Virus record (IMG/VR): IMGVR_UViG_3300029171_000002
Span: 9,343-73,342 of that record
DNA: 64,000 nucleotides
Strand: one strand, 5' to 3'
From: a virus
Taxonomy: Duplodnaviria; Caudoviricetes
Shown: piece after piece, positions 24,690 to 62,105 of the stretch
How positions within the stretch are numbered: position 1 is the stretch's first letter
Layout of the letters: each line of letters starts with the position of its first letter
Notes under the pieces: model-generated
Told to the model about the DNA's origin: nothing
Databases searched by the model: none
Seen by the model: the letters and a program-made list of their open reading frames with translations, nothing else
Program-made: the position numbers and the translations under genes

Positions 24690-25403
24690 TCAGTCGCCGC
24701 CACGAATACAACGCTTGCCCATTGGAATTGGCTCGGGTACTGGCTCTGCTGGCTGCTCTGTGACAGTCCAACTTTCAAGTGCTGGCATCACGTAATAAGG
24801 TTGCCAGCCAGGAAAAACCGCTGACGTGACAGCCGCAGTGCGCATTGACTCTGGTGTGTCCCTGTGGCCACCGCCAAGCATTGGAGTAGATTCTATCCCA
24901 GTTAACCGAAACGACTGGCGTGGATTACCAACTTGAAGGTTGGAGGCGAACAGGATCTGTCCTTCTGGCATATTCGGATCAGTGACAACCGGCATGCCTG
25001 CCAATGCTCCACTCAATGCGTCCATCTCATCTGAGGATGGAACAACCAATGTAGGCCGGTCAGCTGCTATCCAACGTGCGCCAAAATCTTCAGGCCTCAA
25101 CGCAACCGCGTCGCGATAGAGCGCATGTATCTGTTCTGCTGTTATCGCTGGCTGTTCTGGTCTCGCAGTAGCCACGGTCGCGGGAGGACCCTCAGATGTA
25201 ACCGTATGAGTCACGGTCACCAAGTCACCACTGGCAAGATCGACTCCTGCCGGAAACTCTTGACGGTCAATCAGAGTCCCCAGAGACCATTCGCCTTCGA
25301 CTGGTGGTTGATAAGAGAATATTGGCTCTCTGCCGAGATCTCCGAACGAGTAAGTGCGTCTGGCTCGACTCCTCTCTCTTGGTTCACGATTGCGCCTGCT
25401 CAT
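24690..25403 (-). CDS. hypothetical protein ending in KRCIRGGD
   Basis: 237 aa ORF, coupled to upstream gene. Confidence 0.6.
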   Translation of the reverse strand: MSRRNREPRERSRARRTYSFGDLGREPIFSYQPPVEGEWSLGTLIDRQEFPAGVDLASGDLVTVTHTVTSEGPPATVATARPEQPAITAEQIHALYRDAVALRPEDFGARWIAADRPTLVVPSSDEMDALSGALAGMPVVTDPNMPEGQILFASNLQVGNPRQSFRLTGIESTPMLGGGHRDTPESMRTAAVTSAVFPGWQPYYVMPALESWTVTEQPAEPVPEPIPMGKRCIRGGD

Positions 25404-25822
25404 CTCACGGTCACCTTGACATGCTGAGACCCAATAGTTTCCTTCAACACGGTCCCACCGTGCTCATCGGCCACTTCATAAATAGCCGTCACGAAGTAGT
25501 GATAGGTTCTGACAGCCTTAAAACTTGTAGAGCCGTGAATTGTTTGTGTTGTTGAATCCACAAAGCAATCAGCCAGTATCATCTTCGGGATAAAAGGGTC
25601 ATAGAACCCTTCCTGCGTCTGAGACCTGCGAACCCTAAAGTATCGGAACTGGTCACTGTATGGAGTCTCCCAGCACAGCTTAACATCTTCCCCCACCGCC
25701 TTTGCCAACTCAGAGGCTCCGTCAGCACCCACACACATACGGGCATCAGCACTTGTCTGTGCCATGACAAAGCCTCCAAAGAATACCAACAACAGCAGGA
25801 GAAAATAGAGGATCCAAGACAT
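25400..25822 (-). CDS. signal-peptide/TM-anchored FN3-like protein
   Basis: Hydrophobic N-terminus; LCWE...YFRVRRS...YHYFVTAIY. Confidence 0.55.
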   Translation of the reverse strand: MSWILYFLLLLLVFFGGFVMAQTSADARMCVGADGASELAKAVGEDVKLCWETPYSDQFRYFRVRRSQTQEGFYDPFIPKMILADCFVDSTTQTIHGSTSFKAVRTYHYFVTAIYEVADEHGGTVLKETIGSQHVKVTVR

Positions 25823-26277
25823 TACGCTTCAGGCTCTTGGATCTCGCTAACTTCCACTTTAACGATCGTGGCCTTGCTCAAATCGGGACCAGTGAAATCC
25901 AGCAGAGCAACGATGGGTTCTACGCCGGATCCAAGATCCGCATCGGCTTGGAACACGATTTGACCGATCCCTTCATCCAGACAGGTGAGCTTCCCTTCCC
26001 GTGTAACCTGATCGAAGGCGACTCCGCCTGCGATTTCATTCGAATTCGTGATCGTGATATCGCCGTCAATCTTTGCATCCCGGCCTTTGACATCCTCGAT
26101 CTTCAGTTTGAAAGTGACAAACTGTCCCAACTTTGTGAAAGCTGCCATGACTTTTTCTCCTTTTACTGTGATGTTGTTGATGGTGACGACGACGAACAGA
26201 CGAGCTTGAGGCTTCTTCTTGTGAATGATTTTGACGATGAAGTCGGATTGCGGTTCCAGATCAAGACAAAGAGTCAC
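25822..26277 (-). CDS. Ig-like domain protein
   Basis: Alternating beta-strand pattern GQFVTFKLKIED...GQIVFQADAD. Confidence 0.45.
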   Translation of the reverse strand: MTLCLDLEPQSDFIVKIIHKKKPQARLFVVVTINNITVKGEKVMAAFTKLGQFVTFKLKIEDVKGRDAKIDGDITITNSNEIAGGVAFDQVTREGKLTCLDEGIGQIVFQADADLGSGVEPIVALLDFTGPDLSKATIVKVEVSEIQEPEA

Positions 26278-26343
26278 GATGAACCTCCTGAATGGAACCT
26301 AGCAGTAACTGGCACAAAGTTCAACCACTGTGTTGTTAAATCT

Positions 26344-26748
26344 TCAGCCACGGATGCAACGCTTGTTCATTGGGATGAATTCTGGGGTGAACTTAGGCGA
26401 CGCATATCCATAGGTAATCGCTGGTGTCCCTAGATTGTAGGTGACTGAATGGCCATATTCTAAGGACCACTGGCTTGAAGCCACTTCTACTGCAAGATTG
26501 CGGTTATGATTGAATCCCATTACAGTCACAAAGAAACCACCAATATTTTCATCATAAATTTCCGGACACTCAAAAGTTACATCTATCTGAGTTCTTGCTG
26601 GTTCTCCACCGCGATAGGCTGTCGGACATTCATAGACATAGGCCATTCTTGGGGTACGTGTGCCGTCTGGATGCAAAAGATTTTGGTGTACCGTGACCCT
26701 GTAAAAGTCCGCGCCCTGCAGAGGTTCCCAACTCGCTCGGACCCTCAC
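26344..26748 (-). CDS. FN3-like protein ending in KRCIRG
   Basis: ASWEPLQGADFYRVTV...FFVTVMGFN. Confidence 0.55.
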   Translation of the reverse strand: MRVRASWEPLQGADFYRVTVHQNLLHPDGTRTPRMAYVYECPTAYRGGEPARTQIDVTFECPEIYDENIGGFFVTVMGFNHNRNLAVEVASSQWSLEYGHSVTYNLGTPAITYGYASPKFTPEFIPMNKRCIRG

Positions 26749-27419
26749 GCATCACCGCCTCGAATCGCACGGCGTCCACTTGGGATAGACTTCTTGGCCG
26801 CAGCTTCGGCCGCTGGTTGGTTCGCTTGGCTATAGAGTCCTCGACCTACCCATGGTTGAGAGATAGTAAACCACTCTCCGGGAGCAAGGTTTCTGATTTG
26901 CCTAATTTCTTCCTCCCGTTGTGCTCGATGCTCCTCTGGAGTTACGCTGAAACCTACAGGCTGAGCAATCGACTCCGTGGTTGTGACTTCAACGGTTAGG
27001 GGTGTCGGAGCAATTATCCTCAGTGATTCCTCTTCAGTCGCAGGCCTCCAAGTTTGCGTTTGGTGATTCCAGAACCATAATCTTTCACCGCGAGCGGCCT
27101 GAGATTCAACGGGGCTGTTTAGATTGAATCGATAGCGTTCGTTACCAGCGTAATCGGAATGGCCATAAGGGGAGTTCGATCCGGGCAATCCAGCCATCGG
27201 CATCTCTTGTGGTGGCTGATCCCTGAAGGCCTGAATTTGGTACTTGCTTATGAGATAGGCTGAAGAGCAATTCATGGAAAAGATTATCCCGCTGGTGACA
27301 ATCTTGAGCCATAACGGGAGATTCATGCTGATCGCTTTATTGATTCCAATCGCAGCAAAAACGCCACACGCCATCAGGAGAGCTACTGTAATAATCAGGT
27401 TCTTGGTCGCTGCGGTCAT
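26745..27419 (-). CDS. two-TM membrane protein ending in RRAIRGGDA
   Basis: From MTAATK (ATGA overlap with upstream gene); two hydrophobic segments. Confidence 0.6.
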   Translation of the reverse strand: MTAATKNLIITVALLMACGVFAAIGINKAISMNLPLWLKIVTSGIIFSMNCSSAYLISKYQIQAFRDQPPQEMPMAGLPGSNSPYGHSDYAGNERYRFNLNSPVESQAARGERLWFWNHQTQTWRPATEEESLRIIAPTPLTVEVTTTESIAQPVGFSVTPEEHRAQREEEIRQIRNLAPGEWFTISQPWVGRGLYSQANQPAAEAAAKKSIPSGRRAIRGGDA

Positions 27420-28075
27420 GGCATCTTCTCGTTCGGCGCAAACTTTCCAGTTTTCTTGCGGTAGGCGACCATTTGTCGCATCTTGGTTTGATTGTGCCTT
27501 CCCCACCAGTATTGTCCGGGAACGCCGTGGTGCGCAAGTCTAATTGGCAGGTACACCCGATTCCATTGCGACCAACGGGCTTGAAACTCACCGTCCACGC
27601 CCCCGGCATGACTCCATTGCTCCGACAACAAGGGCTTGCTGGCAACCGCAGGATCTTGACTGTGAAACAGATGAAAATATCCCGGCATCTCGGAATGCTG
27701 GGGCCTGACAACCTTGCCGTCGAGGGTTCTGAACGCACCATAGAGACATCCCGAGACAGGCCCGATTGTCATTACCGTCTCTCGCCAGTTCGGTGGCGGC
27801 TCAACGTCAGCATCAAAGAACAGGCACCATTCGGTCTCGTGCCACTGCTCGACACCTTCATTCATGGCCGCACCTTTGTTGAAACTGGCACCGTTGTGAT
27901 AGAAGCTGGAGGTTACAAGGAAGGGGATGCGGTGTTTGCGGCAGAGTTGGCGGGTAGCTTTGTCTTCGAGGTCAGTAACGACTATGAGTTCGTCAAGGGT
28001 GTCTTTCCAGATGGAAAGGGAATGGCTGAGTTCTGAGGCGAAGTTGACGCAGGTGGTGAGACCACTGATTTTCAT
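27416..28075 (-). CDS. glycosyltransferase (GT-A fold)
   Basis: TTCVNF...IVVT...FNKGAAMNEG...LFFDADV. Confidence 0.75.
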   Translation of the reverse strand: MKISGLTTCVNFASELSHSLSIWKDTLDELIVVTDLEDKATRQLCRKHRIPFLVTSSFYHNGASFNKGAAMNEGVEQWHETEWCLFFDADVEPPPNWRETVMTIGPVSGCLYGAFRTLDGKVVRPQHSEMPGYFHLFHSQDPAVASKPLLSEQWSHAGGVDGEFQARWSQWNRVYLPIRLAHHGVPGQYWWGRHNQTKMRQMVAYRKKTGKFAPNEKMP

Positions 28076-28083: not shown

Positions 28084-28836
28084 TTAGAATTTTCTCTCAC
28101 GTTCCATGCGCTTCAAACATTCTCTGGGAGTTTCATTCGGACGCAATGTGTATCCACATCCAAGAGTTCCCCCTTTCCACGAGCCAGTACGCTCACCGAC
28201 TTCATCATTGAATGTCACTTCAATTGCATAAGTGGTAATCCCCCAAGGCAATCGTCTCAAACGACGAAGTTTTCTTGTGCGGCGTTCAACAAAGATACTC
28301 GCTGTTCGCTCTTGAAACTGACCAGAATTTAGCAGATAGCGATACGGGTATACTTCAATATGGCGACCATCAGGCTCTTTCAGGATTGGCGTACTACCGT
28401 CCCTGGCTCTCGCGAGGGCCATATCATTCTCCCACGTCCCAACATACTTGGACCAGGATCCATCGGCCCTTCGTACCTCATGGTTCGTCTGCATCCAATC
28501 ATGCCAAGGTAGAGTCCAAAGCTTTGTGCGCTTTCCCCAATGCAGATGCCAGCAACCTTCTCGGAGAGAAGCTCCCCATGATTCCATCATGTCTTCTGGA
28601 TCGTGGCGATACTTATTCAAGAATGGTAGATCGATGAAACACTGGATCCAAAGCAGATTAATCTGGAAAGAGAAGCCCTCTTCAAATAAGCAGATCTCAA
28701 GTGCGCAGCCACGAACACCAAGAGACAAAGACCCCCACTTCATTCTAAATGACCCGCGATCACTTTTATCTCTCCCGCCAAGCAAGCGCACCATCAAGGG
28801 AAGTCTGTCTGGAATTACCACGTCAGAGCCAATCAT
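28084..28836 (-). CDS. conserved phage hypothetical protein
   Basis: 250 aa; FNDEVGERTGSWKGGTLGCGY motif. Confidence 0.55.
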   Translation of the reverse strand: MIGSDVVIPDRLPLMVRLLGGRDKSDRGSFRMKWGSLSLGVRGCALEICLFEEGFSFQINLLWIQCFIDLPFLNKYRHDPEDMMESWGASLREGCWHLHWGKRTKLWTLPWHDWMQTNHEVRRADGSWSKYVGTWENDMALARARDGSTPILKEPDGRHIEVYPYRYLLNSGQFQERTASIFVERRTRKLRRLRRLPWGITTYAIEVTFNDEVGERTGSWKGGTLGCGYTLRPNETPRECLKRMERERKF

Positions 28837-28848: not shown

Positions 28849-29760
28849 TCATACATTGATTTCCTTAGACCATCGGCGCATGTAATCCGTCGCTCTCTCA
28901 GTGCGGGTTTGATGCAAAGACTCAATCAGCGTAGCTTTCCGGTAAGGCTTGATCTGCACTAATTGCTCGTGCGTCTTGCTGTACGTGTCCGTATCGTCCA
29001 AGTCCATGCTGCCCTTCAGATTCAACGGCACTCCACAACTCGGACACCAACGTTCGATCTGGTTCTCAAATCTCTCTATGCCAGACTTCCACCACTGCGG
29101 GTATACCGGGATGCCATTGTCTTCATCATAGAGGATATCAAAAGCAGCCGCAACCTCGCAGAAGTATCCCTTAGCAACGCCGTTACGCTCGATGATCCCT
29201 CCGCTCCAGTCGTTGTTGATCGGACAATTCTTGATGATCGCCCACATGGTTTCACGGTCGGGGATGTACTCGGAGCCAACGAAGTCTTCGATGGCAGTGA
29301 GAATCGGTGAGTGCCAGCTCTGGGTCGTGCCAGATTCTTTGATCGCCTTGCCTGGCACCCAGCGTTCAAAGTCGGCAAAGGCTGCGGCATTGCCATGAGC
29401 GTTTAGGTTGAAAGTTCCATGAGGGTAAAACGTATCACGCACAACGCTACCATGCTTCAGCAGGTTGTTTGACCACAAGCCGCGGTGACGTTGATCTGGT
29501 ATGACTTCGCAGAGGATGGCACAGAGTTCTGGGAACTGTTTGTGAGTGGTTGGGTTACCACCGAATACACCCACAATTCCAGGCCAGTCTCTCAGCGACT
29601 CGCAGGCTTCACGAAAGCTCGACAGCGAGATGTTGTACTTGTTCCCGCTGTGTGCCACGCTCTGAGTGCAATTGCTGCACCGGAGATCGCAGCGCGAGGT
29701 CACGATGATCTGGATGTTCTGGTTTCCGCCATTGCGGAGTTTGTCGATGGGAGCCAGCAT
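28849..29760 (-). CDS. radical SAM protein
   Basis: CDLRCSNC (CxxxCxxC), FGGNPT, additional C-terminal Cys residues. Confidence 0.85.
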   Translation of the reverse strand: MLAPIDKLRNGGNQNIQIIVTSRCDLRCSNCTQSVAHSGNKYNISLSSFREACESLRDWPGIVGVFGGNPTTHKQFPELCAILCEVIPDQRHRGLWSNNLLKHGSVVRDTFYPHGTFNLNAHGNAAAFADFERWVPGKAIKESGTTQSWHSPILTAIEDFVGSEYIPDRETMWAIIKNCPINNDWSGGIIERNGVAKGYFCEVAAAFDILYDEDNGIPVYPQWWKSGIERFENQIERWCPSCGVPLNLKGSMDLDDTDTYSKTHEQLVQIKPYRKATLIESLHQTRTERATDYMRRWSKEINV

Positions 29761-30044
29761 TAGAAGGCCTGAGTTGCGGAACAGTTAAGGCAAAAAGTTT
29801 CATCCTTCGTTATTCCGAAGGCGATGCCCCCACAATTACAAGTCCACATCAAGCCTCGTGTTGGACTGCAATGGTAAATGTAGTGGCCCTTCATTGAATG
29901 GCACTCACCGCACTCGAACCAGAAGGTTCCCACAGGAGCCACGGCTACCCACTCATGACCGCAAGTCATACAGCGAGCCTTCCCCGCATTGTGAGGAGTA
30001 TCGTTGTTCTCTGGGAAGGCGAGTACCTTTGCGGGTTCATTCAT
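29760..30044 (-). CDS. small Zn-finger protein
   Basis: Multiple CxxC pairs. Confidence 0.55.
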   Translation of the reverse strand: MNEPAKVLAFPENNDTPHNAGKARCMTCGHEWVAVAPVGTFWFECGECHSMKGHYIYHCSPTRGLMWTCNCGGIAFGITKDETFCLNCSATQAF

Positions 30045-32065
30045 TATGGTTCAGGTGTTATCAAATTCTGAGGATTCACGCTTCCCTTACCGCCAGGGAA
30101 TGGCTTGCCAGTCCCACCAGGGTTGCCTGCCTGCTGATCGATGGGTGACGGCGGTGTGTTTGGCTGAGGCGGTGTCATGGCAGCCGCGACATTGATATCG
30201 CCCGTAGCAAATAGAGAAGCTAAGGCCGGCACGGCTTGGATCAGAGTCGTGATCACAGCTTCCCTGAGCGATTGTTCTTTCTCGATCTGAAGCTGCTTCT
30301 CTACCTTCTCGATCATCGCTCCCATATCCAGACCATCGTACAAGGTCTTGCGGCTCATGTCGCCTTGACGTCGCAATGCCATGTACAGCATTGCCCGTTG
30401 ATCACGGCTGCTATTCAGCAAAGTGTCTGGGCTGATCTGGAATTTGAACTGTTGGATGAACTCTTGCGGCTTCATCCCTGAAGGAATCATTGTGTCGGGA
30501 TTGTAATCAAAGTCCTGTTCAACCGTGCCATCTTCCACGCCAAACATCATGATCCGGCGCTCAATCGAGTAAAACTGAATGAAGTTCGACACCATCTGCT
30601 CGCCAAGCTCTGAGACAGCGTGCTCCATGTAGCGGCCCCGGAGTCGCATGATCGTCTGCTGCGGTTCTTTCAGCTCAGCTAACGTGTCTCCGGCCGGGGT
30701 AATCTTCTTACGCCCAAGATCGGCTACACCCAACAGTCCAGAGTCGTCCTGAATCTGTTGCTGGGCGTATTCTGCCAACTGTGGGACATAAGAAGGGAGG
30801 CTTGGCGGTTGAGACCACGTAGGCACTTGGTTCGACATTCCACCATAACCCAGCTTCAGGCCCGGCTGGCCCATGTCCGCATTCTTCATAAAGTTTGAGC
30901 TGAACTGCTCGCTCTGGTAAAGCAACGTCGGGTTGATCGCCTTCTTCACCATATCCAGGATCCCGGCCATCACTTCGTTCACAACCTTCTGGAGCGGGAC
31001 TTTAGACCGAAGCTCACTTACCCCGTGGTACTGCCATGGCACTTGCTTCACTCTCAGATCGATGAATGGATATCGGCCGTGCCAGAGATAGTTTGGCCCA
31101 TCGTCCAAGACGGCAAAGTTCTCACCACCGGTCACGATCAGGCGCCCACGCGGATACAAAGGTTGGCCTGGATGCACCCAATAGCTCCAATTCGTCTTTT
31201 CCTTTCCAACGAATACCGGCTGGTCTGAGACATTAACAGAATCGTCCTGCACCCAGAACTGAGTGAAGCGAGCAATCGGAATAGCACTTTGCCGATTCTC
31301 AACCTGATTGGTCCCGCCCATGAACCTTCGCATTGCTGGACCAGCGGCATGAAAGGCTCCCGTAGTCATGTAATTTGGCGTGCCCACCGGAACAGCGTAA
31401 CTGCTCATCTTCAGGTTCGGCACAACCTTGTAGTACTTTTCTTTGAAGTTGCGCTTGAACCACCCCATCGGTTTGTAACAGGTATAGGTCAGGCCTTCCC
31501 AATCCTGCAGGCGATGCGTGGCAGGCCCGATCGGCAGCACAGAGTTAATGCCTTCGGCTGCGCACTGGAAATCACCTTTCCCCCCAAACAGGCGAGGGTT
31601 CCAGAAGTAGCGAATAAACCCTGTAGACAGATAGGCATGGGTCAAGGCCATGGCGAAATCAAGATCCACGTCTTGATTCACCCACCAGGCTTTTGACATC
31701 TTCGTCAGCTTCTCGGCTTGCTGTTTTAGTGTCTGGTTCTGGGTGCCAACCGTGTAGGCCAAGCGGATATCAGTAAGGACAGCAATCGTCTGCTCCATGC
31801 TGCGCAATAGCAGGTTGTTTACCGGAGCCGACTTGTACTTCGGTCTCCCGGTATCCCACTGCTTGCCCATCAGTTGATCAATGTATTTCGGGATCTGGTT
31901 TGCTTCAGGGCTGGACTTCTGCCAGAGGTCTTGCTCCTCTGCAACTGCATAACACCAATCGGTAATTCTCTTTTCGATTGCGGCCGCATCCAGGTTGGGG
32001 GTATGGGCCAGCAGGTCATAGGGGTGAGAGGAAGTACTCGTTACTGCTCTGATCTGTGCATTCAT
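30044..32065 (-). CDS. portal protein
   Basis: 673 aa; KPQYK/PVNNLLL, GRLIV.GG..VL.DGPN...YPF, helical C-terminus; position between TerL and head genes. Confidence 0.85.
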   Translation of the reverse strand: MNAQIRAVTSTSSHPYDLLAHTPNLDAAAIEKRITDWCYAVAEEQDLWQKSSPEANQIPKYIDQLMGKQWDTGRPKYKSAPVNNLLLRSMEQTIAVLTDIRLAYTVGTQNQTLKQQAEKLTKMSKAWWVNQDVDLDFAMALTHAYLSTGFIRYFWNPRLFGGKGDFQCAAEGINSVLPIGPATHRLQDWEGLTYTCYKPMGWFKRNFKEKYYKVVPNLKMSSYAVPVGTPNYMTTGAFHAAGPAMRRFMGGTNQVENRQSAIPIARFTQFWVQDDSVNVSDQPVFVGKEKTNWSYWVHPGQPLYPRGRLIVTGGENFAVLDDGPNYLWHGRYPFIDLRVKQVPWQYHGVSELRSKVPLQKVVNEVMAGILDMVKKAINPTLLYQSEQFSSNFMKNADMGQPGLKLGYGGMSNQVPTWSQPPSLPSYVPQLAEYAQQQIQDDSGLLGVADLGRKKITPAGDTLAELKEPQQTIMRLRGRYMEHAVSELGEQMVSNFIQFYSIERRIMMFGVEDGTVEQDFDYNPDTMIPSGMKPQEFIQQFKFQISPDTLLNSSRDQRAMLYMALRRQGDMSRKTLYDGLDMGAMIEKVEKQLQIEKEQSLREAVITTLIQAVPALASLFATGDINVAAAMTPPQPNTPPSPIDQQAGNPGGTGKPFPGGKGSVNPQNLITPEP

Positions 32066-37307: not shown

Positions 37308-37742
37308 TCAGAAACTTGGTTCTTGCGGTTCAAGATCAGCAACTAACCATTGGTTCTCACCATCCCTGAATTTCTTGAAACACTCCAAGGCTCGCCTTCC
37401 CTCACGAACAGATCCATGATACATCTGACAGATTTCTGCTGGAGTGAATTTCAAGCTAAGTGGAATTGGAAATCCATTGAACCATAGCCAGCCTGGACGC
37501 ATATCTGTTCTTTCAATAAGCAGCAGCGCACCTTTTGCGGCATCATCAATAGTCCCACCACCCTTATTAAAATCAAAGTGCCAGACTCCACAAGGGTCTT
37601 GTGTCACCTTAAAACGAACCCAACAACCGCAGTCAAGCTTAAAAGTCACTTCATTTTCAGATCTCCATTCAAAGATCAGGCCTTCACCTTTAACGAGAGA
37701 GGCTGCGCCAAACCCACATCCCCTTATGGCTCTGCGGCTCAT
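37308..37742 (-). CDS. hypothetical protein starting MSRRAIRG
   Basis: ATGA overlap with upstream gene. Confidence 0.6.
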   Translation of the reverse strand: MSRRAIRGCGFGAASLVKGEGLIFEWRSENEVTFKLDCGCWVRFKVTQDPCGVWHFDFNKGGGTIDDAAKGALLLIERTDMRPGWLWFNGFPIPLSLKFTPAEICQMYHGSVREGRRALECFKKFRDGENQWLVADLEPQEPSF

Positions 37743-38422: not shown

Positions 38423-38677
38423 TTATCTGTACTGCGCAGGCATTTCCGATCTTAAATGCCCACATCGAGAACACTGCCACGGATTCACCCATGCGACTCG
38501 ACCAAAATACATCACATCGCGAAACACCCAATGATGGCCAAGAATAAAGCAAGTCATGCCCGGAGAGAGCTTGAACATGCCCAAGCGGACCTTGTCCAAA
38601 AAGCTGAACGATGGTTCGGCAATCGCTTCCGTGCCACGACTTTCTTCAGGTTGAGGACCACCACGAATACATCGCAT
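38423..38677 (-). CDS. small Zn-binding protein starting MRCIRGG
   Basis: C..LGHHW...CSRCG. Confidence 0.5.
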   Translation of the reverse strand: MRCIRGGPQPEESRGTEAIAEPSFSFLDKVRLGMFKLSPGMTCFILGHHWVFRDVMYFGRVAWVNPWQCSRCGHLRSEMPAQYR

Positions 38678-39036: not shown

Positions 39037-39273
39037 TTACTCAACCGTACCAGTTTCGTTAGCTAGCGTATGTCCAAACTCGTCGGAAGCCACGATGTTG
39101 CATATTGACCCTCCAGGAAGGGCTATCTCGACGGGAGGTTTTTCGGCTAGCATGATCAGAACACCGTTACAGAATATTCGGTATGTATCAGCATCCGGCA
39201 CTAGATCCCAATCCAACCTGTACAACTTAAGCTTTGGGATATTGTCCGGGTTTCGTATCGCTCGGCGAGGCAT
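39037..39273 (-). CDS. small FN3-like protein starting MPRRAIR
   Basis: LDWDLVPDADTYRIFCNG...IVASDEFG. Confidence 0.55.
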   Translation of the reverse strand: MPRRAIRNPDNIPKLKLYRLDWDLVPDADTYRIFCNGVLIMLAEKPPVEIALPGGSICNIVASDEFGHTLANETGTVE

Positions 39274-41903: not shown

Positions 41904-41935
41904 TTGAATTAAAGAGGCACTGGAGAGGCCTTTTC

Positions 41936-44721: not shown

Positions 44722-44732
44722 AAGGAGGAGCG

Positions 44733-46518: not shown

Positions 46519-46519
46519 T

Positions 46520-46594: not shown

Positions 46595-46612
46595 CAATTA
46601 AGGAGGATTACA

Positions 46613-46960: not shown

Positions 46961-46963
46961 CTC

Positions 46964-47409: not shown

Positions 47410-48287
47410 GACCAGAACCCGGCATCTACAAAAACGTTCCGTTTGATGAGTACATGCTCTGGGAGGGATGCTCTAACTCAATGCTGAACGACATGCGTCA
47501 ATCTCCCGCCCATTGCTATTATCGCAAGAGGAATCCAGAAGAACCAACACCGGCCATGATACTCGGCTCAGCAGTTGATGCTTTGGTTTTTGAACCAGAC
47601 AGTTTTAAAGCACGTTTTGCGGTTACTGAACAATGTACGGCCAAAACACAAAAAGGCAGTAGATGCTCTAATCAGGGCAGTTTGGTCGCCTTCAATTTTG
47701 ACAAGGAATGCGATGAATGGTTTTGTGGAACCCACTCCCAAGCAAATTCAGCAACGGCTCCATCACAAAGAATATTATCCGCATCAGACAATGATAATGC
47801 CGTGGCTATGTCTGAAGCGGTCCGCGCTCACCAATCAGCCTCACAACTATTGACAGCTTGTGAAGCTTTTCAGGCCTCAATGCTGTGGCGGGACTCTCAT
47901 GGTCTTTACTGCAAGGGTCGTCCTGACGGGATATCAAAAAAACATCAAGTTATTATTGACCTAAAGACTACCATTGATGCAGGCCCCACGAGTTTCACAA
48001 AGACCATTTTCAATCTTCATTACTATGCCCAAGCTGCAATGTATTTGTCTGGAGCAAGATCCTGTGGAGTAGATATTCAGGATTTTGCATTCATTGCTGT
48101 CGAAAAAACTCCCCCGTTTGGAGTCGCCGTCTATCGCTTAGAGGAATCAGCTATTGAATTTGGCAGAAGAGAAATTGATAGGCTTTTAGCCACCTACAGA
48201 GATTGTATTGATCACGACTCTTGGCCAGGATATCCAAGTGAAATAGTAGATATTTCTTTGCCAGAATGGGTGATTCGATCGCTATGA
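47406..48287 (+). CDS. RecE/exonuclease VIII-like PD-(D/E)XK nuclease
   Basis: SPAH...TPAMILGSAV, CKGRPD...IIDLKTT, YYAQAAMY, FIAVEKTPPF. Confidence 0.88.
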   Translation: MRPEPGIYKNVPFDEYMLWEGCSNSMLNDMRQSPAHCYYRKRNPEEPTPAMILGSAVDALVFEPDSFKARFAVTEQCTAKTQKGSRCSNQGSLVAFNFDKECDEWFCGTHSQANSATAPSQRILSASDNDNAVAMSEAVRAHQSASQLLTACEAFQASMLWRDSHGLYCKGRPDGISKKHQVIIDLKTTIDAGPTSFTKTIFNLHYYAQAAMYLSGARSCGVDIQDFAFIAVEKTPPFGVAVYRLEESAIEFGRREIDRLLATYRDCIDHDSWPGYPSEIVDISLPEWVIRSL

Positions 48288-48799
48288 CAAGGCCACACAA
48301 GAAATACAAACGGAGGGCAATCCTTACTCTTGAAGCCAGGCTTTGGAGAAATGTAGAAAAGTCTGATGATGGATGCTGGTTATGGACCAAGGCGGTTCGT
48401 CGTGATGGCTATGGTGCCATAGAGGAATACGGAACAAAATTCAATCACGCTGTCCACAGATTGTCTTGGATGTTGGCCAATGGACCAATTCCAGAAGGTC
48501 TTTATGTTTGCCATCACTGCGACACAAAACGTTGTGTTAGGCCAGACCACCTTTTTCTCGGGACAGCCAAAGATAATACCCAGGATTGTATCAAGAAGGG
48601 GCGCTTTCAGAACGTATCACCATACAGGAAAACAAAACTCACAGAAGATATAGTGAGATCGATTCTAGAAATGTCCAATGGAGGGGCACGCCAGATAGAG
48701 ATCTGCAAAAGTCTTAACCTGAGAGACGATCAAGTGTGTCGAATTGTTAATCGAAAAAGATGGAAACATGTAAAGGAGAATGTCAATGAATGCAGGTAA
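48284..48799 (+). CDS. HNH homing endonuclease
   Basis: CWLWT...GYG...HRLSW...GPIPEGL.VCHHCD...CVRPDHLFLGT..DN..D. Confidence 0.92.
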   Translation: MTRPHKKYKRRAILTLEARLWRNVEKSDDGCWLWTKAVRRDGYGAIEEYGTKFNHAVHRLSWMLANGPIPEGLYVCHHCDTKRCVRPDHLFLGTAKDNTQDCIKKGRFQNVSPYRKTKLTEDIVRSILEMSNGGARQIEICKSLNLRDDQVCRIVNRKRWKHVKENVNECR

Positions 48800-49892
48800 G
48801 ACAGAGTTCCTTGAGGGACCGATTGAAACCGTATCGGCTCTTGAGGTCATCAATAAGTCAGAGATTGACATCCAGATCTCGACTGCGAAGAAGTATCCAC
48901 GGCTCATCAAAAAGTTCAAGGATGAAGCCTTGGCAATGGCCACACTTGACGAAGAAACCGCGTCCTCATGCTTCTACGTCCTAAAGCGCAAGAACGCTGA
49001 CGGCACCCCAAACAACATCGAAGGGCCTTCCATTCGCTTGGCTGAGATCATTGGTAGCGCATGGGGGAACCTGCGGTACGGTGCCAGAGTCATTTCCATC
49101 GACGACAAGTTTGTCACGGCTCAAGGCGTTTGCCACGACCTGGAAAAGAACAATAGCGCCAATGTCGAGGTCCGGCGCCGCATCACCACCAAAAGTGGAA
49201 GTCGCTACGGTGACGACATGATCGGAGTCACGGCCAATGCAGCGTGTTCCATTGCCCTGCGCAACGCAATCTTCAAGATCGTGCCTTTCACTTACGCTAA
49301 GGATATCTACGAGCAAGCGAAAAAGACGGCGATCGGAGACGCCAAAACGTTGTCATCGAAGCGTGAGAGCATGATTCAGTATTTCGGCAAGATGGGTGTC
49401 AGTAAAGACAAGATCTTCGCCAGCCTTGACATCAAGAGCGTGGACGAAATCGGGCTGGATCAGCTGGCTACACTAAAGGGATTCGCCACGGCCATCAAAG
49501 ACGGGGATTCAACGATTGAGCAGGTGTTCGAGAAGCAAGCACAGGAAACCAGTAGTGGAGCTTCCAAGCTGAACGAGAAGATGCAGGAGACTGCGACCCA
49601 ACAGAAAGAAGCAGCGGCACCGACAGAAACAGCGGCCCAAGGCACTCTAATTCCAGAGACACAACTAGGTGAAGACGTACCGACCGACGACGCTGTTCTA
49701 GACCTTCGCTTAGCCATCAAAGAACTACTTACGAAGAACTTTACTCCCAATGTCGTAGGTTCAAAACTGACTACCCTCAGCAAGCGACCAAAGTCAGGTG
49801 GCGGGCACGAGTACTTGACGACCAAGACCCTTGAAGAATGCTCTGACGTGGAATGGCTCCAACTCACTTACGCTAATCTCTCTTCCAAATAA
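48786..49892 (+). CDS. putative ssDNA-annealing recombinase
   Basis: IDIQISTAKKYPR...IEGPSIRLAEI...WGNL; follows exonuclease. Confidence 0.65.
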   Translation: MNAGKTEFLEGPIETVSALEVINKSEIDIQISTAKKYPRLIKKFKDEALAMATLDEETASSCFYVLKRKNADGTPNNIEGPSIRLAEIIGSAWGNLRYGARVISIDDKFVTAQGVCHDLEKNNSANVEVRRRITTKSGSRYGDDMIGVTANAACSIALRNAIFKIVPFTYAKDIYEQAKKTAIGDAKTLSSKRESMIQYFGKMGVSKDKIFASLDIKSVDEIGLDQLATLKGFATAIKDGDSTIEQVFEKQAQETSSGASKLNEKMQETATQQKEAAAPTETAAQGTLIPETQLGEDVPTDDAVLDLRLAIKELLTKNFTPNVVGSKLTTLSKRPKSGGGHEYLTTKTLEECSDVEWLQLTYANLSSK

Positions 49893-50300
49893 ACTACGAT
49901 CACGACAAGGAGAAAATCAATGGCTACGGGGACTCCCAAAGGTTTCAACTCCAATGCAGTTGGGTCAGATGTCGAGTGTTGTTACTACTTCAATGATGCG
50001 GATTTACGTGAGGCTGCGGGGGAAAAGAAAGAGCCAGCAGGTAAACCGCATGGAGCCACGGGTTCAAGTTGTGGTGGTATGGTTCGCAGTGTGAATTTTG
50101 CAGTCGAGGTTTTGCAGCGCAAACGCTTGGAAGCACTCCAGGCGTAACAGGTTCTCATCCCGGTGCAATCACGGCCGGGATGAGGGTATTTCAAAAATGA
50201 TCCCAGCCATCATCGTCCTCTGTCTGTTCGTCGTCGCTGCGTTTGCAGCTTTGGTTTACGTTGGCTGGCAGATTGTAAAGGATTTTAAGGAGAATTTTAG

Positions 50301-50663
50301 ATGAGTTCAATCACGCTTCAACTTGACCCAGTGGCTATCCGGGAGGCCACATCGCAGGCGATCATGGGATTGCTGACACCGGAGATGAAGACAAAGATCA
50401 TCACCGATGCCTTGTCAAATCTCCTGAAGCCCTCTACTGACTCATGGAGAAATAACAAAACACCCTTGGAGGAAGCTTTCAACAACGCCGTTATTCAGGT
50501 TACTCAGAAAATGGCCAAGGAAATGGTCGAGGGTGATGCTGATCTTGTGGCCAAGATCAAGGATTTGATCAACCAAACTGCTCACAAAGTACTCAACACG
50601 GATGTCGAGAAGTTGGCAGGAAAAATGTCAGATTCGTTTATTTCTTCAATGCGGAGAGATTAA
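50301..50663 (+). CDS. hypothetical protein
   Basis: 120 aa helical ORF. Confidence 0.5.
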   Translation: MSSITLQLDPVAIREATSQAIMGLLTPEMKTKIITDALSNLLKPSTDSWRNNKTPLEEAFNNAVIQVTQKMAKEMVEGDADLVAKIKDLINQTAHKVLNTDVEKLAGKMSDSFISSMRRD

Positions 50664-50668
50664 TCCAA

Positions 50669-51127
50669 GTGATCACCACCTTCTTCGTCGATGGCAAGTC
50701 TGCACCCAAGGGGAGTACATTTTCTTTCAAAAACAAGAAAGGGAAGATCATCACGATGCAGGAGGGATCCAAAAAACTCTACGCATGGCAGGACGCAATT
50801 GGGTATGTCGCCAAGCAGAATGGAGTTCAGGTCTCGGATGGGGCTATCCATCTGAAGCTCAACTTTTTCATGCTGCCGCCGAATAAGTCCAAGTACTGGT
50901 TTCCACCACGGCCGGATTTGGACAAGCTTTGTAGGAGTTGTCTCGATGCGCTTTCGGGTGTGGCATACGCCGACGATTTTCAAGTAGTTTCAATTCAAGC
51001 AACTAAGCAGTACTCGACTCATCGGTCTGGAGTAGCAATCACTATTCAAACCATCACGGAGGAAGAGTTATGGCAAGAACGAGAAAAGCCGCCAAGCCAG
51101 GCGGGCCTGAACCTAAGTATGTCCTGA
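50669..51127 (+). CDS. rusA: RusA-like Holliday junction resolvase
   Basis: G..APKGS, RPDLDKL.RS.LDAL.G....DD.QVV...A.K.Y. Confidence 0.9.
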   Translation: MITTFFVDGKSAPKGSTFSFKNKKGKIITMQEGSKKLYAWQDAIGYVAKQNGVQVSDGAIHLKLNFFMLPPNKSKYWFPPRPDLDKLCRSCLDALSGVAYADDFQVVSIQATKQYSTHRSGVAITIQTITEEELWQEREKPPSQAGLNLSMS

Positions 51128-51612
51128 TCAACGCAATATCCCCCAAGGGCCAGGAAGTTCTCAATCTGATGCTTGCCCTCATAAATGAGAATCACGAAGA
51201 ACTTGTCAATGCCAACATCATTCCGGCATGGATGATGGGCAACAAGGAAGACAAAGACGGACATTTGATCTTGGGCAAGATGAAGAAAGCCAGTGAGCTC
51301 GAACGCGAAGCTCACGGAGCTGATGGATTCCTGCTCTTGAATCATGAGGCATGGGAAGTGTTTGACATCAACCAGCGCAGGGCTTTGGTCGATCACGAGC
51401 TTGAACACTTGGCGTTAAGTTTTGACGCGGAAACCGCAGAACCGAAGCGTGACGGGCACGACAAACTAGTGTATCGTTTGCGGAAACACGATGTTGAAGA
51501 GTTCCAGTGCATCATCAGACGACACGGTTGCTGGAAGGACGATCTCCGGAAGTTCGCTGAGGATGCGCTGAAGGCGGATAAACAAAAGAATCTCGCTCTC
51601 ACCGCAGGGTGA
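51070..51612 (+). CDS. putative phage metallopeptidase
   Basis: ALVDHELEH zinc-binding motif, HDVEEF...RHG.W. Confidence 0.8.
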   Translation: MARTRKAAKPGGPEPKYVLINAISPKGQEVLNLMLALINENHEELVNANIIPAWMMGNKEDKDGHLILGKMKKASELEREAHGADGFLLLNHEAWEVFDINQRRALVDHELEHLALSFDAETAEPKRDGHDKLVYRLRKHDVEEFQCIIRRHGCWKDDLRKFAEDALKADKQKNLALTAG

Positions 51613-51687
51613 GCTCCGGCAGGTTCGTCGGTCACAGGGAACGCACCCTCTCTCTGCACGGGCCTGCTGGATGCCAGAAAGGACATC

Positions 51688-52464
51688 GTGGAATTCACGC
51701 TTGAAGAAGCAGAAGCAGCAACCATCCTTCGTGGCGTCGTCGGATCTACCGTTCACGGGCTTCAGGTCAGTGATGGCGTCGATGATACTGATGAGATGGC
51801 AGTAACTGTCGAACCATTCAACCGCGTTGTCGGGTTCCAAGAGTTTGAACAACATATTTTTAGGACAGCCGCTGTCAGAGAAGGAAAGCAGGATGCCCGA
51901 TCAAAGTCAGGAGATCTGGACTTGGTGATCTACTCTCTCAGAAAGTATCTCCGGCTGGCACTGAAGGGGAATCCGACTATTCTTAATCTGCTGTTCATCA
52001 AGCATCCATTCGTAACTAAGATGACACCGCCTGGTGAGCAATTACAGAAGCTCCATCCCTACATCATCAGTCGAAAGGCCGGTGGTGCGTTTCTTGGCTA
52101 TCTCACGGCGCAGAGACAGCGGATTAATGGTGAGGGTGGGCAGAAAGGCGTGCGGCGTCTAGATCTCGAAGAGAGATACGGCTTTGATGTGAAATATGCC
52201 ATGCACATGCTCAGGCTTGGATTTGAAGGCGTGGAGTTAATGAGTACTGGGAACCTCACTCTCCCAATGCGTGAACCCGAGAGGTCGTACCTTTTGGATG
52301 TGCGCACAGGCAAAGTGTCGCTACAGGATTGCCTCACTCGTGCCGGCGAATTGGAACGCGAGTTGAAAGATCTATGGGATAGCTCGCCATTACCAAAAGA
52401 GCCAAATCAAGGAATGGTCGAAAGTTGGATGATGAACGCCTACCGTGAAATGTGGGGATTTTGA
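51688..52464 (+). CDS. RlaP-like predicted nucleotidyltransferase (pol-beta fold)
   Basis: GSTVHGL...DDTDE, GNP.IL.LLF, YLGY...Q, GFDVKYAMH.LRL. Confidence 0.85.
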   Translation: MEFTLEEAEAATILRGVVGSTVHGLQVSDGVDDTDEMAVTVEPFNRVVGFQEFEQHIFRTAAVREGKQDARSKSGDLDLVIYSLRKYLRLALKGNPTILNLLFIKHPFVTKMTPPGEQLQKLHPYIISRKAGGAFLGYLTAQRQRINGEGGQKGVRRLDLEERYGFDVKYAMHMLRLGFEGVELMSTGNLTLPMREPERSYLLDVRTGKVSLQDCLTRAGELERELKDLWDSSPLPKEPNQGMVESWMMNAYREMWGF

Positions 52465-53183
52465 TGAGAACAAAACTGAACTGCCTCAGCTATTGGTATC
52501 CGAAGATCGAACCGGTTGTGCCAACTCCCAAGACGGTCATCCTGCGAACCGATCTTGAGTTGTTGCGAATCTACGACTTTGAAGAGAAGAAAGACGAAGC
52601 GACGATGGAGAAGTGGCGTCTCTTTCTTGAAGAAATGAAGTCTGCAGCCAAACCATTTGGAACACCTTTCTTTCTCAGAACCGGTCAAGGCTCTGGCAAG
52701 CATGGATGGAAAGACAACTGCTTCGTCCAAGACGTTGAGAAGATTGGAGACCACATTTTGAGTCTTGTCGAGTGGTCTGAATGCGTGGACATATTTGGAC
52801 TTCCATCTGACGTTTGGGTGATTCGTGAATTCCTTCAGCTTCAGGCGCCGTTTTCATTACCAGGCTACGGCGACATGCCGATCGCAAAGGAGTTTCGATG
52901 CTTCGTTGACGAGGACAAGATCCGCTGCATTCATCCGTACTGGCCAGAGAATGCTATTGAGCATGGACGCCCGCCGGGACACTGGAAAGTACATTACGAA
53001 GACCTACTTGTCTTGAATGATTGGGATGAAAATAAGGTAAGAGATTTGGCCAGCAAGTGCGGCAAGGCTCTTGGTGGCTCGTGGAGCGTCGATATCTGCG
53101 TTACGCTGGCTGGAGAGTGGGTTGTCACGGATTGTGCTGTTGCCGAGAATTCATGGCATTGGCCGGAGTGTAAGAATAAATGA
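52464..53183 (+). CDS. ATP-grasp-like protein (R2K/Cdc123-like)
   Basis: FFLRTG..SGKH, IREFL, EFRCFV..I..HPYW, SVD.C...W.VTD. Confidence 0.6.
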   Translation: MRTKLNCLSYWYPKIEPVVPTPKTVILRTDLELLRIYDFEEKKDEATMEKWRLFLEEMKSAAKPFGTPFFLRTGQGSGKHGWKDNCFVQDVEKIGDHILSLVEWSECVDIFGLPSDVWVIREFLQLQAPFSLPGYGDMPIAKEFRCFVDEDKIRCIHPYWPENAIEHGRPPGHWKVHYEDLLVLNDWDENKVRDLASKCGKALGGSWSVDICVTLAGEWVVTDCAVAENSWHWPECKNK

Positions 53184-53389
53184 GCTTCACCTACGACGAC
53201 GCCATTGCCATCATCCGAGAGATGAAGAACGACCCGCCATCGGAAGAGACTTACCATGGCAGTGAACGATGGATTTTCAGCTGCTGCAGTGGCGATTGGA
53301 AGACGGGTCACAAGATCACTTGCGCTTGGACCAGGGCAAAGCGGATACTGGAAGCATACGACGAAGAAAATAAACCTGCGTCTTTATGA
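53180..53389 (+). CDS. hypothetical protein
   Basis: Coupled ORF. Confidence 0.45.
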   Translation: MSFTYDDAIAIIREMKNDPPSEETYHGSERWIFSCCSGDWKTGHKITCAWTRAKRILEAYDEENKPASL

Positions 53390-53495
53390 TCCCACCACCG
53401 ATCCTACCTCCGGCTAGCCACCGGGAAATCCTGCCAGAAGGTATCCACGCTGTTAACGGGCCGGAGCGATTCGGCCCAGCCCGCCTGGAGGGAGT

Positions 53496-53831
53496 GTGAG
53501 ACGCGCTATCAGGGGAGGAGAGTTAAAACTTGGGCCAGGGCTGAGAAAGTTCTGGATGCGGTACAATGGCGAAATACTCGCCGAGGCTATTGCGAAAGAT
53601 GAACTTACTTTCGGGGATATAGTCGTTCTTGATGGAGATGGCTATGTGAGAAGAATAAGAGACGAAGATCCTCCATCCTCCGTTGCTGGACAAGTATACA
53701 AGACTAAAGACAGACTAGTGACAGTATGTGTCAGAGGCAACGCTACCGTGGCAACCGCAGCTCCAGATACTTCAGCACAACCTCTTGACCCTCAACCTTC
53801 CGAACCAGAGCGTCAAACTCCTCACGAGTAA
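53496..53831 (+). CDS. hypothetical protein starting MRRAIRGG
   Basis: SD GGAGG before GTG; last gene of rightward unit. Confidence 0.55.
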   Translation: MRRAIRGGELKLGPGLRKFWMRYNGEILAEAIAKDELTFGDIVVLDGDGYVRRIRDEDPPSSVAGQVYKTKDRLVTVCVRGNATVATAAPDTSAQPLDPQPSEPERQTPHE

Positions 53832-60652: not shown

Positions 60653-61012
60653 CTAAAACGGCAGTTCCGTCACAGCCCGTGTCAGTGCTCTCAGCGTGGC
60701 GCCCACACGAGCACTGGCACTCACACATATTTTGTAATAAGAGATCGAACCTTTACAGTTGACGCACCACAGAATCTTATTACCTGCGGTTTGACAAAAC
60801 TCGCCACCGACAAGTATCCCGTCTTCGCTGAGAGCTAAAGCCATTTCGCATGGATGCTCCTGCCAATACGCTTTCAAAGAATCTTTGGCATGTACTCTTG
60901 TCGCTCTCGCATAAATGTAATTCTCAGCCAAGTGGCAAATCTTCTCCTGGTAGGTCTGGAACTTCTTCGGCTTGCGCTTTCGCTCGGGACCGCCACGGAT
61001 CTTCCTAACCAT
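60653..61012 (-). CDS. hypothetical protein starting MVRKIRGG
   Basis: GAGG SD before ATG at 61012; C-terminal Cys cluster. Confidence 0.5.
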   Translation of the reverse strand: MVRKIRGGPERKRKPKKFQTYQEKICHLAENYIYARATRVHAKDSLKAYWQEHPCEMALALSEDGILVGGEFCQTAGNKILWCVNCKGSISYYKICVSASARVGATLRALTRAVTELPF

Positions 61013-61177
61013 TTCCAATCCTCTGGCCACGATACTCGACAGGTGAATCCTGAAAACTCTGCTCAACCCTTAGCAGTAGCTCCTGCGTGACGTGACGGCG
61101 ATTCTGCTTTGCCGCAGATTGAAGCTTGCGAAGCAACTCTATCGGAATAGTGATTAGCTTCTTGTGTGCCTTTGGCT

Positions 61178-61573
61178 TCATGATTCCTCAATCTCCTGCT
61201 CTCGGAGCACCCTTTCATCGCGCAACAGCCCGGCAATGTCGGGACCAACCCAACCCTGTGGTTTCAGAATCTTCCCGTCTTCACGGCTCCCACCATCGAC
61301 TTTCTCCATGTTCGACCTATGAACCTCGTCGTAGTAGACGCCGAGATCGCTTACGCCGAAGCAAACAGCAGCACCGATGAGCGTGTAAATCGAATCGCAG
61401 ATGCCATCGATCGTCTTGACAAGATCGTTGGCGTCGATTGCCTCAAAGAGTTCGTCAATTTCTTCACGGATGAGCTTCTTTCTTAGTGTCGCTCGCATGA
61501 TCGACGGCCGAAACGCTGACTCGACGCCAAACTTCAGGGCAAACTCACGAACTTGTTGCTCCATCTTGTCCAT
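61178..61573 (-). CDS. MazG-like nucleotide pyrophosphohydrolase
   Basis: LIREEIDEL...DGICDSIY...EVHRSNM.K...REDGKILKP. Confidence 0.88.
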   Translation of the reverse strand: MDKMEQQVREFALKFGVESAFRPSIMRATLRKKLIREEIDELFEAIDANDLVKTIDGICDSIYTLIGAAVCFGVSDLGVYYDEVHRSNMEKVDGGSREDGKILKPQGWVGPDIAGLLRDERVLREQEIEES

Positions 61574-61574
61574 G

Positions 61575-62105
61575 TCACTCTGCCAGTGAGATCATATCCA
61601 AGTAAATTGTCTCTAGCCCACCATTATCCTTGCACGGCATGATAAATCCATCACCGCCTGTGAACCGGATCGGCACAGCATAGATACCACGGTTTTTGTC
61701 TTTCAATGGTAAGTCTTGGAGATTAGAGCCGATTGCTTGCGGAGCAATTTGAGGTTGTGGCAGATCCGCAATCAAGTGAATAAACTCCATGGTAAATATT
61801 GGACCAGCTATGCAAATCCGAGGGTGTTGATATCCCTTCCATTCTGGCTTCACATCCAACCACTGATACTCAGGAACCAGCTCAATCTTGTCCCAATTCA
61901 GGGCTCGCTCTACGGGATAATTAGTGTCAATGAATCCAGGGATTCTGCGTACTCTCAGAACAACAAATCCGTTGCTGGTGTAGGTATACGCGCCAACATT
62001 GAACGGTTCAGAGAAGTCCCAGTTTGTGATTCGAGGCAGAGTGGAGTCGCAGAATTTCTGCAACAAATACGCGATACTTTCTCCGCCTCTAATCGCTCGT
62101 CTCAT
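61575..62105 (-). CDS. hypothetical protein starting MRRAIRGG (possible clamp-like fold)
   Basis: YTYTSNGFVVLRV...F.GGDG.IMP motif. Confidence 0.55.
   Translation of the reverse strand: MRRAIRGGESIAYLLQKFCDSTLPRITNWDFSEPFNVGAYTYTSNGFVVLRVRRIPGFIDTNYPVERALNWDKIELVPEYQWLDVKPEWKGYQHPRICIAGPIFTMEFIHLIADLPQPQIAPQAIGSNLQDLPLKDKNRGIYAVPIRFTGGDGFIMPCKDNGGLETIYLDMISLAE

Follow-up and report, generated by a model that had tools for sequence, protein, structure and literature searches.

A heptapeptide at either end of unrelated phage proteins, a candidate docking tag of a Cdc48/VAT-like AAA ATPase module

Short peptides at exposed protein termini serve as recognition signals for classic AAA and AAA+ machines, among them the VBM and VIM motifs of p97 cofactors, HbYX tails and the degrons recognized by ClpX. 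In phages, to our knowledge, very few short linear motifs have been described beyond the capsid-targeting sequence of T4 and clamp-binding tails. Here, we analyzed a 64,000-nucleotide (nt) stretch of an uncultured phage genome (bases 9343-73342 of the 73,342-nt IMG/VR virus record IMGVR_UViG_3300029171_000002; hereafter, the window) and describe a seven-residue peptide, Arg-Arg-Ala-Ile-Arg-Gly/Ser, that occupies the extreme N- or C-terminus of at least 20 unrelated small proteins of this phage. The peptide is very probably a functional tag read by a common partner, and we tentatively propose that this partner belongs to a Cdc48/VAT-like AAA module encoded beyond the window.

Like the VBM, VIM and SHP box motifs of p97/Cdc48 cofactors, the tag is a short linear motif found on many unrelated proteins, and a Cdc48/VAT-like ATPase is encoded alongside its carriers. 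The VBM is itself arginine-rich with an aliphatic residue and can stand at either terminus. The two differ, however, in sequence, and the phage ATPase, whose binding to the tag is predicted, has a single recognizable AAA domain. HbYX tails, with which proteasomal ATPases and alternative caps dock into the 20S alpha ring, offer a second parallel, namely a tail common to an AAA ATPase and to unrelated proteins that occupy one docking site; in our case, the ATPase of Aeromonas phage HJ05 bears the motif at its C-terminus. Yet HbYX requires a free C-terminus and a penultimate Tyr, whereas 11 copies of the present tag are N-terminal and no proteasome-like partner is known. Degrons of AAA+ proteases (ssrA, MuA R-R-K-K-A-I and the N-terminus of lambda O for ClpX) are also extreme-terminal and exposed, and the MuA tag is likewise basic with an Ala-Ile. 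In contrast to the known ClpX signals, each of which is specific for one terminus, the phage uses one sequence at both ends, the candidate reader is phage-encoded and degradation is not implied.

A six-frame scan of the whole record with the pattern [RK][ACK]IR[GN] returned 12 matches, the same 12 that an initial annotation had listed from the bare sequence. All of them lay at the ends of open reading frames (ORFs) and none was internal: nine began 0-2 residues past an ATG or GTG opening a long ORF and three stopped 0-2 residues short of a stop codon. Logan contigs, publicly available from two sister runs, match the record at 100% identity in the overlap and extend it rightward, and joining them to the record gave a 100,878-nt assembly; about 11 kb of the right-hand contig SRR4039780_856, corresponding to most of a 3,666-amino-acid (aa) polyvalent protein, lies outside this assembly. 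The genome measures at least 100 kb. The 91-kb extension contained 15 matches as compared to 1.0 in 100 dinucleotide shuffles (maximum 3). With a widened core, [KR][ACQK]IR[GSN], six-frame scanning of the 100,878 nt yielded 23 matches versus 3.5 in 60 dinucleotide shuffles (maximum 8), and 20 of the 23 were extreme ORF ends (11 N-terminal, 9 C-terminal). Chance is excluded because only ~1% of six-frame positions qualify as terminal slots, and the terminal enrichment over shuffled controls on which the initial annotation hinged is thus borne out. Its count of 12 carriers holds within the record and grows to 20 on the extended assembly, which adds two N-terminal copies (L016:15093-15437 and L016:17243-17614) and six C-terminal ones, the latter found by allowing Ser after Ile-Arg. 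The tag thereby marks roughly one in eight of this phage's genes. The copies are as follows (window coordinates unless prefixed by a locus name):

37716-37742, minus strand: N-terminal M-S-R-R-A-I-R-G-C; 144-aa ORF 37308-37742, where an independent gene call also starts
38657-38677, minus strand: N-terminal M-R-C-I-R-G-G; 84-aa ORF 38423-38677, independent gene call in agreement
39250-39273, minus strand: N-terminal M-P-R-R-A-I-R-N; 78-aa ORF 39037-39273, independent gene call in agreement
41233-41259, plus strand: N-terminal M-A-R-R-A-I-R-G-G; 109-aa ORF 41233-41562, first gene of the plus-strand block, independent gene call in agreement
41559-41585, plus strand: N-terminal M-T-R-R-A-I-R-G-G; 114-aa ORF 41559-41903, independent gene call in agreement
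44290-44310, plus strand: N-terminal M-R-A-I-R-G-V; 143-aa ORF 44290-44721, untagged homolog in phage phiA047
53496-53519, plus strand: N-terminal R-R-A-I-R-G-G behind a GTG start; 111-aa ORF 53496-53831, independent gene call in agreement
60989-61012, minus strand: N-terminal M-V-R-K-I-R-G-G; 119-aa ORF 60653-61012, independent gene call in agreement
62082-62105, minus strand: N-terminal M-R-R-A-I-R-G-G; 176-aa ORF 61575-62105, independent gene call in agreement
24693-24716, minus strand: C-terminal K-R-C-I-R-G-G-D; 237-aa ORF 24690-25403
26347-26364, minus strand: C-terminal K-R-C-I-R-G; 134-aa ORF 26344-26748
26748-26774, minus strand: C-terminal R-R-A-I-R-G-G-D-A; 253-aa ORF 26745-27506
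L182:761-1045, 1045-1413, 4421-4627, 5800-6168, 6210-6560 and 6560-7264: six ORFs with C-terminal copies beside the ATPase gene

Aligned, the copies define the core consensus [KR]-R-[A/C]-I-R-[G/S], which runs in the same N-to-C orientation in every copy, whichever end it occupies. The Gly-Gly that had been counted as part of the motif falls outside this core, being missing after Ile-Arg in 7 of the 20 copies. When 28,724 protein positions were scored with a weight matrix, the tags reached 19.5-25.3 bits and the best other site 9.6 bits, giving a cleanly bimodal distribution. Two near-matches, I-R-Q-I-R-N at 26903 (minus strand; inside the tagged 253-aa ORF, 52 residues from its end) and R-R-S-I-R-G at 58503 (minus strand; in the middle of a 118-aa ORF), probably arose by chance.

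The tags are conserved as peptides. The same residue in two tags was encoded by the same codon in 127 of 444 comparisons (28.6%), the cores agree at 63% of their nucleotides and both CGN and AGR codons are used for Arg. With codons scrambled to this degree, selection acts on the peptide, as had been argued at the outset. Every copy is in frame with a long ORF, and in all 11 N-terminal copies the initiator codon stands 0-1 codons before the first basic residue. As predicted gene starts, the tag starts likewise held up: for all but one of the 11 N-terminal copies (10 of 11), independent gene calls on the Logan contigs open at the Met or Val of the tag, the copy at 44290 being outside the loci compared. 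Two starts call for amendment, as the one at 53496 is a GTG and not the ATG originally read, and the ATG at 61012, although present, lies inside a longer ORF opening with TTG. Shared promoters for the tagged genes were considered and rejected, with promoter-like and terminator-like sites no more common than in shuffles. So was stop-codon recoding that would render the C-terminal copies internal: the only tRNAs are those for Met and Phe, and long core genes are open and full-length under the standard code.

The carriers have nothing but the tag in common. All-versus-all BLASTP (E up to 1e-3) among the carriers of the 91-kb gene set revealed no similarity beyond it, and carriers occur in all strand blocks, in line with what had been noted from the sequence. 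Two have homologs elsewhere, and the homologs of both are untagged. In the PF27050-family member at L016:17243-17614, the tag and a 13-residue linker precede the domain; in an alignment of eight homologs from other sources, the domain starts at most three residues from the initiator Met, and the same is true of an untagged paralog encoded 1.5 kb away. The protein encoded by ORF 44290-44721 is 48% identical to one of Aeromonas phage phiA047, which begins three residues before the shared domain and lacks the tag. On these comparisons, modular gain of the tag, an expectation of the initial annotation, is seen twice. The 12 residues beside the tags contain 14.3% proline as compared to 4.8% proteome-wide, so that the tag often sits on a short proline-rich linker, and the C-terminal copies have a slightly longer common form, typically with Pro-(Ile/Val)-Pro-Met-Gly ahead of the basic pair. 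The six copies flanking the ATPase gene all end exactly one residue past Ile-Arg-Ser/Gly. Residues after the tags are polar or proline-rich and form no hydrophobic region, which sets them apart from Tat signal peptides, in which the Arg-Arg motif precedes 12-20 hydrophobic residues and a signal-peptidase site. Terminal, modularly gained and spread over unrelated proteins, the tag fits the portable linear signal that had been postulated.

Annotation of the carriers with Pfam, PHROGs and the ESM Atlas yielded nothing usable, and the FN3-like and Zn-finger labels initially given to some of them found no confirmation in Pfam. Of six carriers used as tblastn queries against GenBank phages, a single one had a homolog, and the 176-aa carrier at 61575-62105 had no homolog among 5.8 billion protein clusters. 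The 253-aa carrier (26745-27506) contains two hydrophobic segments resembling transmembrane helices. In the carrier at 24690-25403, residues 148-170 resemble the C-terminal end of the major capsid proteins in two relatives, L176 and L177, with 61-70% identity (70% over 23 residues for one of them), and are closer to these than to the capsid protein of the phage itself; the segment may be a captured fragment of a capsid gene. An AlphaFold2 model of this 237-aa protein was uninformative (predicted local distance difference test score, 32). For the PF27050 member, modeled from a 10-sequence alignment, the tag and linker formed a low-confidence coil and the C-terminal part a modest helical hairpin. 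A phmmer search of PDB sequences with a tag-bearing 26-mer gave no significant match.

Searches beyond this genome suggest that the tag is private to its lineage. Degenerate DNA patterns for M-x-R-R-A-I-R-G-G and M-R-R-A-I-R-G-G hit 12 and 36 loci in IMG/VR, none of them genuine; the matches were off-frame in other genes, such as a lambda-type terminase, or fell in junk ORFs. The same pattern retrieved no true tag from 185,579 species genomes (one per prokaryote species), where matches comprised intergenic repeat elements (Bradyrhizobium, Xanthobacteraceae and Hydrogenophilus), a site internal to response regulators of Pseudomonas and sporadic background hits in high-GC sequence. The closest terminase homologs reach 41-52% identity, and four terminase relatives (L053, L054, L176 and L177), which have their head-gene order in common with this phage, showed neither the tag nor any other recurring motif at N-termini or other ends. 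An IMG/VR search with the terminase alone found no relatives, and one with the SMC-like ATPase of this phage found a single, unrelated contig. In the literature, our search found no paper describing such a tag system.

To the right of the window, at a distance of about 18 kb, L182:1569-4145 encodes an 858-aa classic AAA ATPase (Pfam AAA, E 6e-17) whose best matches of solved structure are VAT, Cdc48 and p97 (E 5e-26). Tagged genes cluster here, with six C-terminal copies flanking the ATPase gene within ~6.5 kb. The Walker A motif of the ATPase is split by an intein of 352 residues (residues 273-624; L182:2385-3440), and because of this insert the protein is ~300 residues longer than its homologs. 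The junctions read G-I-S-G followed by Cys-Leu-His-Gly-Asp-Thr, a Thr-x-x-His block lies inside, and a His-Asn end stands just before Thr-Gly-Lys-Ser; removal of residues 273-624 restores G-I-S-G-T-G-K-S, with an F-V-G pore-loop motif downstream. Against the PDB, the insert gave only weak matches, almost all of them to DnaE inteins.

By tblastn, homologs of the ATPase occur in 75 GenBank phages, and four of these (HJ05, RHph_I4, RcTiptonus and SM1) were inspected. In all four, the ATPase gene heads a conserved cluster upstream of replication genes, annotated in Rhizobium phage RHph_I4 as the ATPase, a ~210-aa protein, DUF1257 and DUF2997, and the conserved block of the ATPase gives way to a linker of low complexity and a terminal basic tail. 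In the distant Aeromonas phage HJ05, this tail is N-R-R-A-I-R-T-Q-G and thus contains the tag motif itself. That R-R-A-I-R should end this very ATPase in an unrelated phage by chance appears very unlikely (~1e-5 per protein, as a rough estimate). The RHph_I4 ATPase ends in G-K-R-A-G-M-S-L-D-S and the adjoining protein in T-R-R-A-V-K-L, and in Rhodobacter phage RcTiptonus and Pseudomonas phage SM1 the tails of the ATPase are basic but match more loosely. As a separate observation, several replication and recombination proteins of HJ05 and RHph_I4 begin with arginine-rich peptides, e.g. V-R-T-R-S-R-V (SSB-like), V-R-T-R-N-R-V (a 131-aa protein) and R-A-R-S-R (RecA-like) in RHph_I4 and several P-x-R-R-R starts in HJ05, which may represent a second tag system.

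Taken as a short linear motif on flexible ends, which is how it behaves, the tag has one reading orientation at either end of a protein. A binding site must therefore tolerate chain on both sides, which argues against pockets that require a free amino or carboxyl group. The AAA module suggests itself as the place of reading because tagged genes cluster at the ATPase gene and the motif recurs on homologous ATPase tails. Two features expected of tails read by AAA unfoldases are present, namely an exposed terminal peptide on unrelated proteins and a linked gene for a classic unfoldase-type AAA ATPase. We favor, tentatively, a model in which the peptide marks many accessory proteins for docking to, or recognition by, an AAA-unfoldase module. 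It would be this lineage's version of the basic tail that accompanies the conserved Cdc48/VAT-like module, multiplied onto at least 20 unrelated, mostly orphan proteins. One shared reader would bind the exposed tag, most likely the ATPase ring via its N-terminal domain or pore entrance, or else another member of the module. In this way, the machine would acquire the tagged proteins as clients for unfolding, remodeling or transfer; alternatively, they might serve as adaptors that bring other targets. Among the four functions offered by the initial annotation, a docking site for a common hub fits best, with the AAA module outside the window as the candidate hub.

Several points weigh against this interpretation. 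The phage's own ATPase ends in K-S-S-R-V-N rather than in the tag, 14 of the 20 carriers are encoded far from its gene, and HJ05 and RHph_I4 lack a comparable expansion of tags. The tails of HJ05 and RHph_I4 are only loosely alike, so their apparent family resemblance comes from few sequences. The HJ05 ATPase has no obvious aromatic pore loop, the activity of the present ATPase depends on intein splicing, and the three C-terminal copies within the window lie in the head-gene region, where they would equally fit a role in the virion. Should a third protein be the docking partner of the ATPase tail, the ATPase would be a fellow client and not the reader.

The phage appears to be podovirus-like: its portal and adaptor genes are of the SU10/P22 type, and it encodes large internal virion proteins as well as a beta-helix tail protein. 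The portal gene (30044-32065) and the scaffold/capsid genes are separated by an accessory island of ~5.3 kb that encodes the three C-terminal carriers of the window; in the relatives, this position holds only 0.3-0.8 kb and the island itself is absent. The island also encodes a homolog of the CBASS (cyclic oligonucleotide-based antiphage signaling system) inhibitor Acb3 (28084-28836, minus strand; Pfam E 2.5e-43) beside the C-terminal carriers, and an adjoining radical-SAM-like protein (28849-29760, minus strand) with weak matches to peptide-maturase families. Directly after the portal gene, three of the relatives have two or three genes for small proteins that are very basic (L054:7462-7810, L176:11178-11542 and L177:15733-16339) and have Gly/Arg/Ser-rich tails such as G-R-G-G-G-R-S-R. 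These proteins were rejected as a source of the tag, K-R-A-[ILQ]-x-R occurring in them at chance level. A resemblance of the scaffold C-terminus to the tag was also discounted, as it is not conserved in the relatives.

The plus-strand block at 41233-53831 carries recombination and RNA-repair genes, including those for an SMC/RecF-like ATPase, a RecE-like exonuclease and, on reading the sequence alone, perhaps a RusA-like protein. The candidate RNA-repair genes stand at two places on this strand: at 45904-46594, an RNA ligase gene has a tRNA-Phe just downstream, and at 51070-53183, the genes for a PF18894 metallopeptidase with an H-E-x-x-H motif (51070-51612), an RlaP nucleotidyltransferase and an ATP-grasp enzyme of the R2K clade adjoin one another. 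A second tRNA (Met, CAT) lies at 24244-24318. The major capsid gene is split (20733-22523, minus strand), such that 22523-22452 codes for residues 1-24 and 21653-20745 for residues 22-320. An ORF of 237 aa (21646-22359) lies in the ~800-nt insert, which is intron-like rather than an intein, given that the first exon runs into an in-frame stop at 22450; Rfam detected no group I intron in it at the gathering threshold. In the relative L177, a LAGLIDADG ORF (19070-19630) lies immediately upstream of an N-terminally shortened capsid ORF. On the far side of the assembly, L182:8999-10752 (minus strand) encodes the last 584 residues of the predicted polyvalent protein of 3,666 aa, which has an LPD38 domain, beside an M15 peptidase and a KTSC-domain gene. 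As the polyvalent-protein gene runs on past the locus, the genome must be well over 100 kb, above the size implied by the 82% completeness estimate for the 73-kb record.

The main rival to a role at the AAA module is a virion-addressing tag, which would dock accessory proteins to the procapsid or capsid as internal, co-injected cargo or as surface decoration, as modeled by the T4 capsid-targeting sequence and the cargo-loading peptide of encapsulins. We regard it as unlikely, although the three copies in the head island and the capsid-like segment in the carrier at 24690-25403 keep it alive. It would also accommodate the three N-terminal carriers encoded just upstream of the terminase gene, the nature of the carriers as orphan accessory proteins and the polyvalent protein, which is of a kind thought to be packaged. 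The T4 sequence is likewise a short terminal peptide common to unrelated accessory proteins of one phage, but it is exclusively N-terminal, ends in a site for the prohead protease gp21 and is removed, whereas nine copies here are C-terminal and Pfam and PHROG searches found no prohead protease among the head-module ORFs. Moreover, most carriers are encoded in non-structural strand blocks, six of them at the ATPase gene, one is apparently a membrane protein, and nothing links the motif to capsid, scaffold or portal proteins, the best non-tag site of the proteome scoring 9.6 bits. Distinctly unlikely, too, is a signal for a host protease, chaperone, polymerase or ribosome, either a docking motif or a degron, that would leave the phage ATPase uninvolved. 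Bacterial degrons typically occupy such extreme-terminal positions, viruses are well known to mimic short linear motifs of their hosts, and adaptation to a single host would predict a lineage-private tag; such a motif would leave unexplained, however, both the clustering of tags around the phage ATPase gene and their presence on ATPase tails in phages of other hosts.

Cleavage at the tag is a rather improbable alternative. The initial annotation had considered a protease site after Gly-Gly. Ile-x-Gly-Gly is in keeping with double-glycine leaders and with the consensus sites of several cysteine proteases; cuts after such sites are made by adenain, by papain-like LxGG proteases and by deubiquitinases; and the PF18894 metallopeptidase of the phage, or else a host enzyme, might cut after Ile-Arg-Gly-Gly. 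This fits poorly with the copies that lack Gly-Gly, with the Pro that follows it in 2 of the 11 N-terminal copies, with the mere 0-2 residues that C-terminal copies would shed and with the retained 13-residue linker of the PF27050 member, needless for a simple pro-peptide. In addition, no cysteine protease, C39 or JAB domain turned up among the proteins scanned. Double-glycine leaders, for their part, span 15-30 residues and are cut by a C39 peptidase or ABC transporter, as opposed to the 7-9 residues of the tag. Highly improbable is a mimic of ubiquitin-like tails that engages or jams host Bil or type II CBASS Cap2/Cap3 systems, the decoy of the initial annotation. A-I-R-G-G does resemble the A-L-R-G-G tail of NEDD8 and the L-R-G-G tail of ubiquitin, and an Acb3 homolog adjoins C-terminal carriers; Acb3, however, acts on CD-NTases through direct binding, not on conjugation. 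The likeness ends at the tail itself: ubiquitin-like modifiers combine a beta-grasp body and a free or processable C-terminal Gly-Gly with E1 and JAB partners, whereas no beta-grasp body was detected here and Pfam scans gave no E1 or JAB match, Gly-Gly lies within two residues of a free C-terminus in only 2 of 20 copies, the six ATPase-side copies end in Ser-x or Gly-x, and the N-terminal copies have no free carboxylate, such that neither N-terminal nor Ser-x copies can be E1 substrates as they stand. Finally, the notion that there is no peptide signal at all, only a DNA or RNA element (boundary repeat, ribosome-binding region or homing site) or an artefact of wrong starts, is close to refuted. 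In its favor, the Arg-Gly-Gly codons of the copy at 26748-26774 supply a GAGG 10-13 nt before the GTG start of the next gene. This is outweighed by codons scrambled to the level of random synonymous choice, by the placement of all copies in frame, and by the initiator positions and agreeing gene calls of the N-terminal copies.

Returning to the favored AAA-module reading, a single heptapeptide works at both ends of proteins and may be traceable to the tail of a conserved, uncharacterized AAA unfoldase module that is present in phages of Aeromonas, Rhizobium, Rhodobacter, Pseudomonas and mycobacteria. In a bolder and more doubtful version, the tag would be a private address code of the phage for its own Cdc48-like unfoldase, linking at least 20 fast-evolving accessory proteins as clients or adaptors in a phage counterpart of the p97 cofactor network, for host takeover or counter-defense, and modules of this kind with lineage-specific tags would be widespread, if so far undescribed. 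If the ATPase or a partner does read the tag, some 20 orphan proteins would gain a common functional context, a widespread phage ATPase of uncharacterized role would gain a testable function, and a small portable tag with a defined reader would become available for biotechnology.

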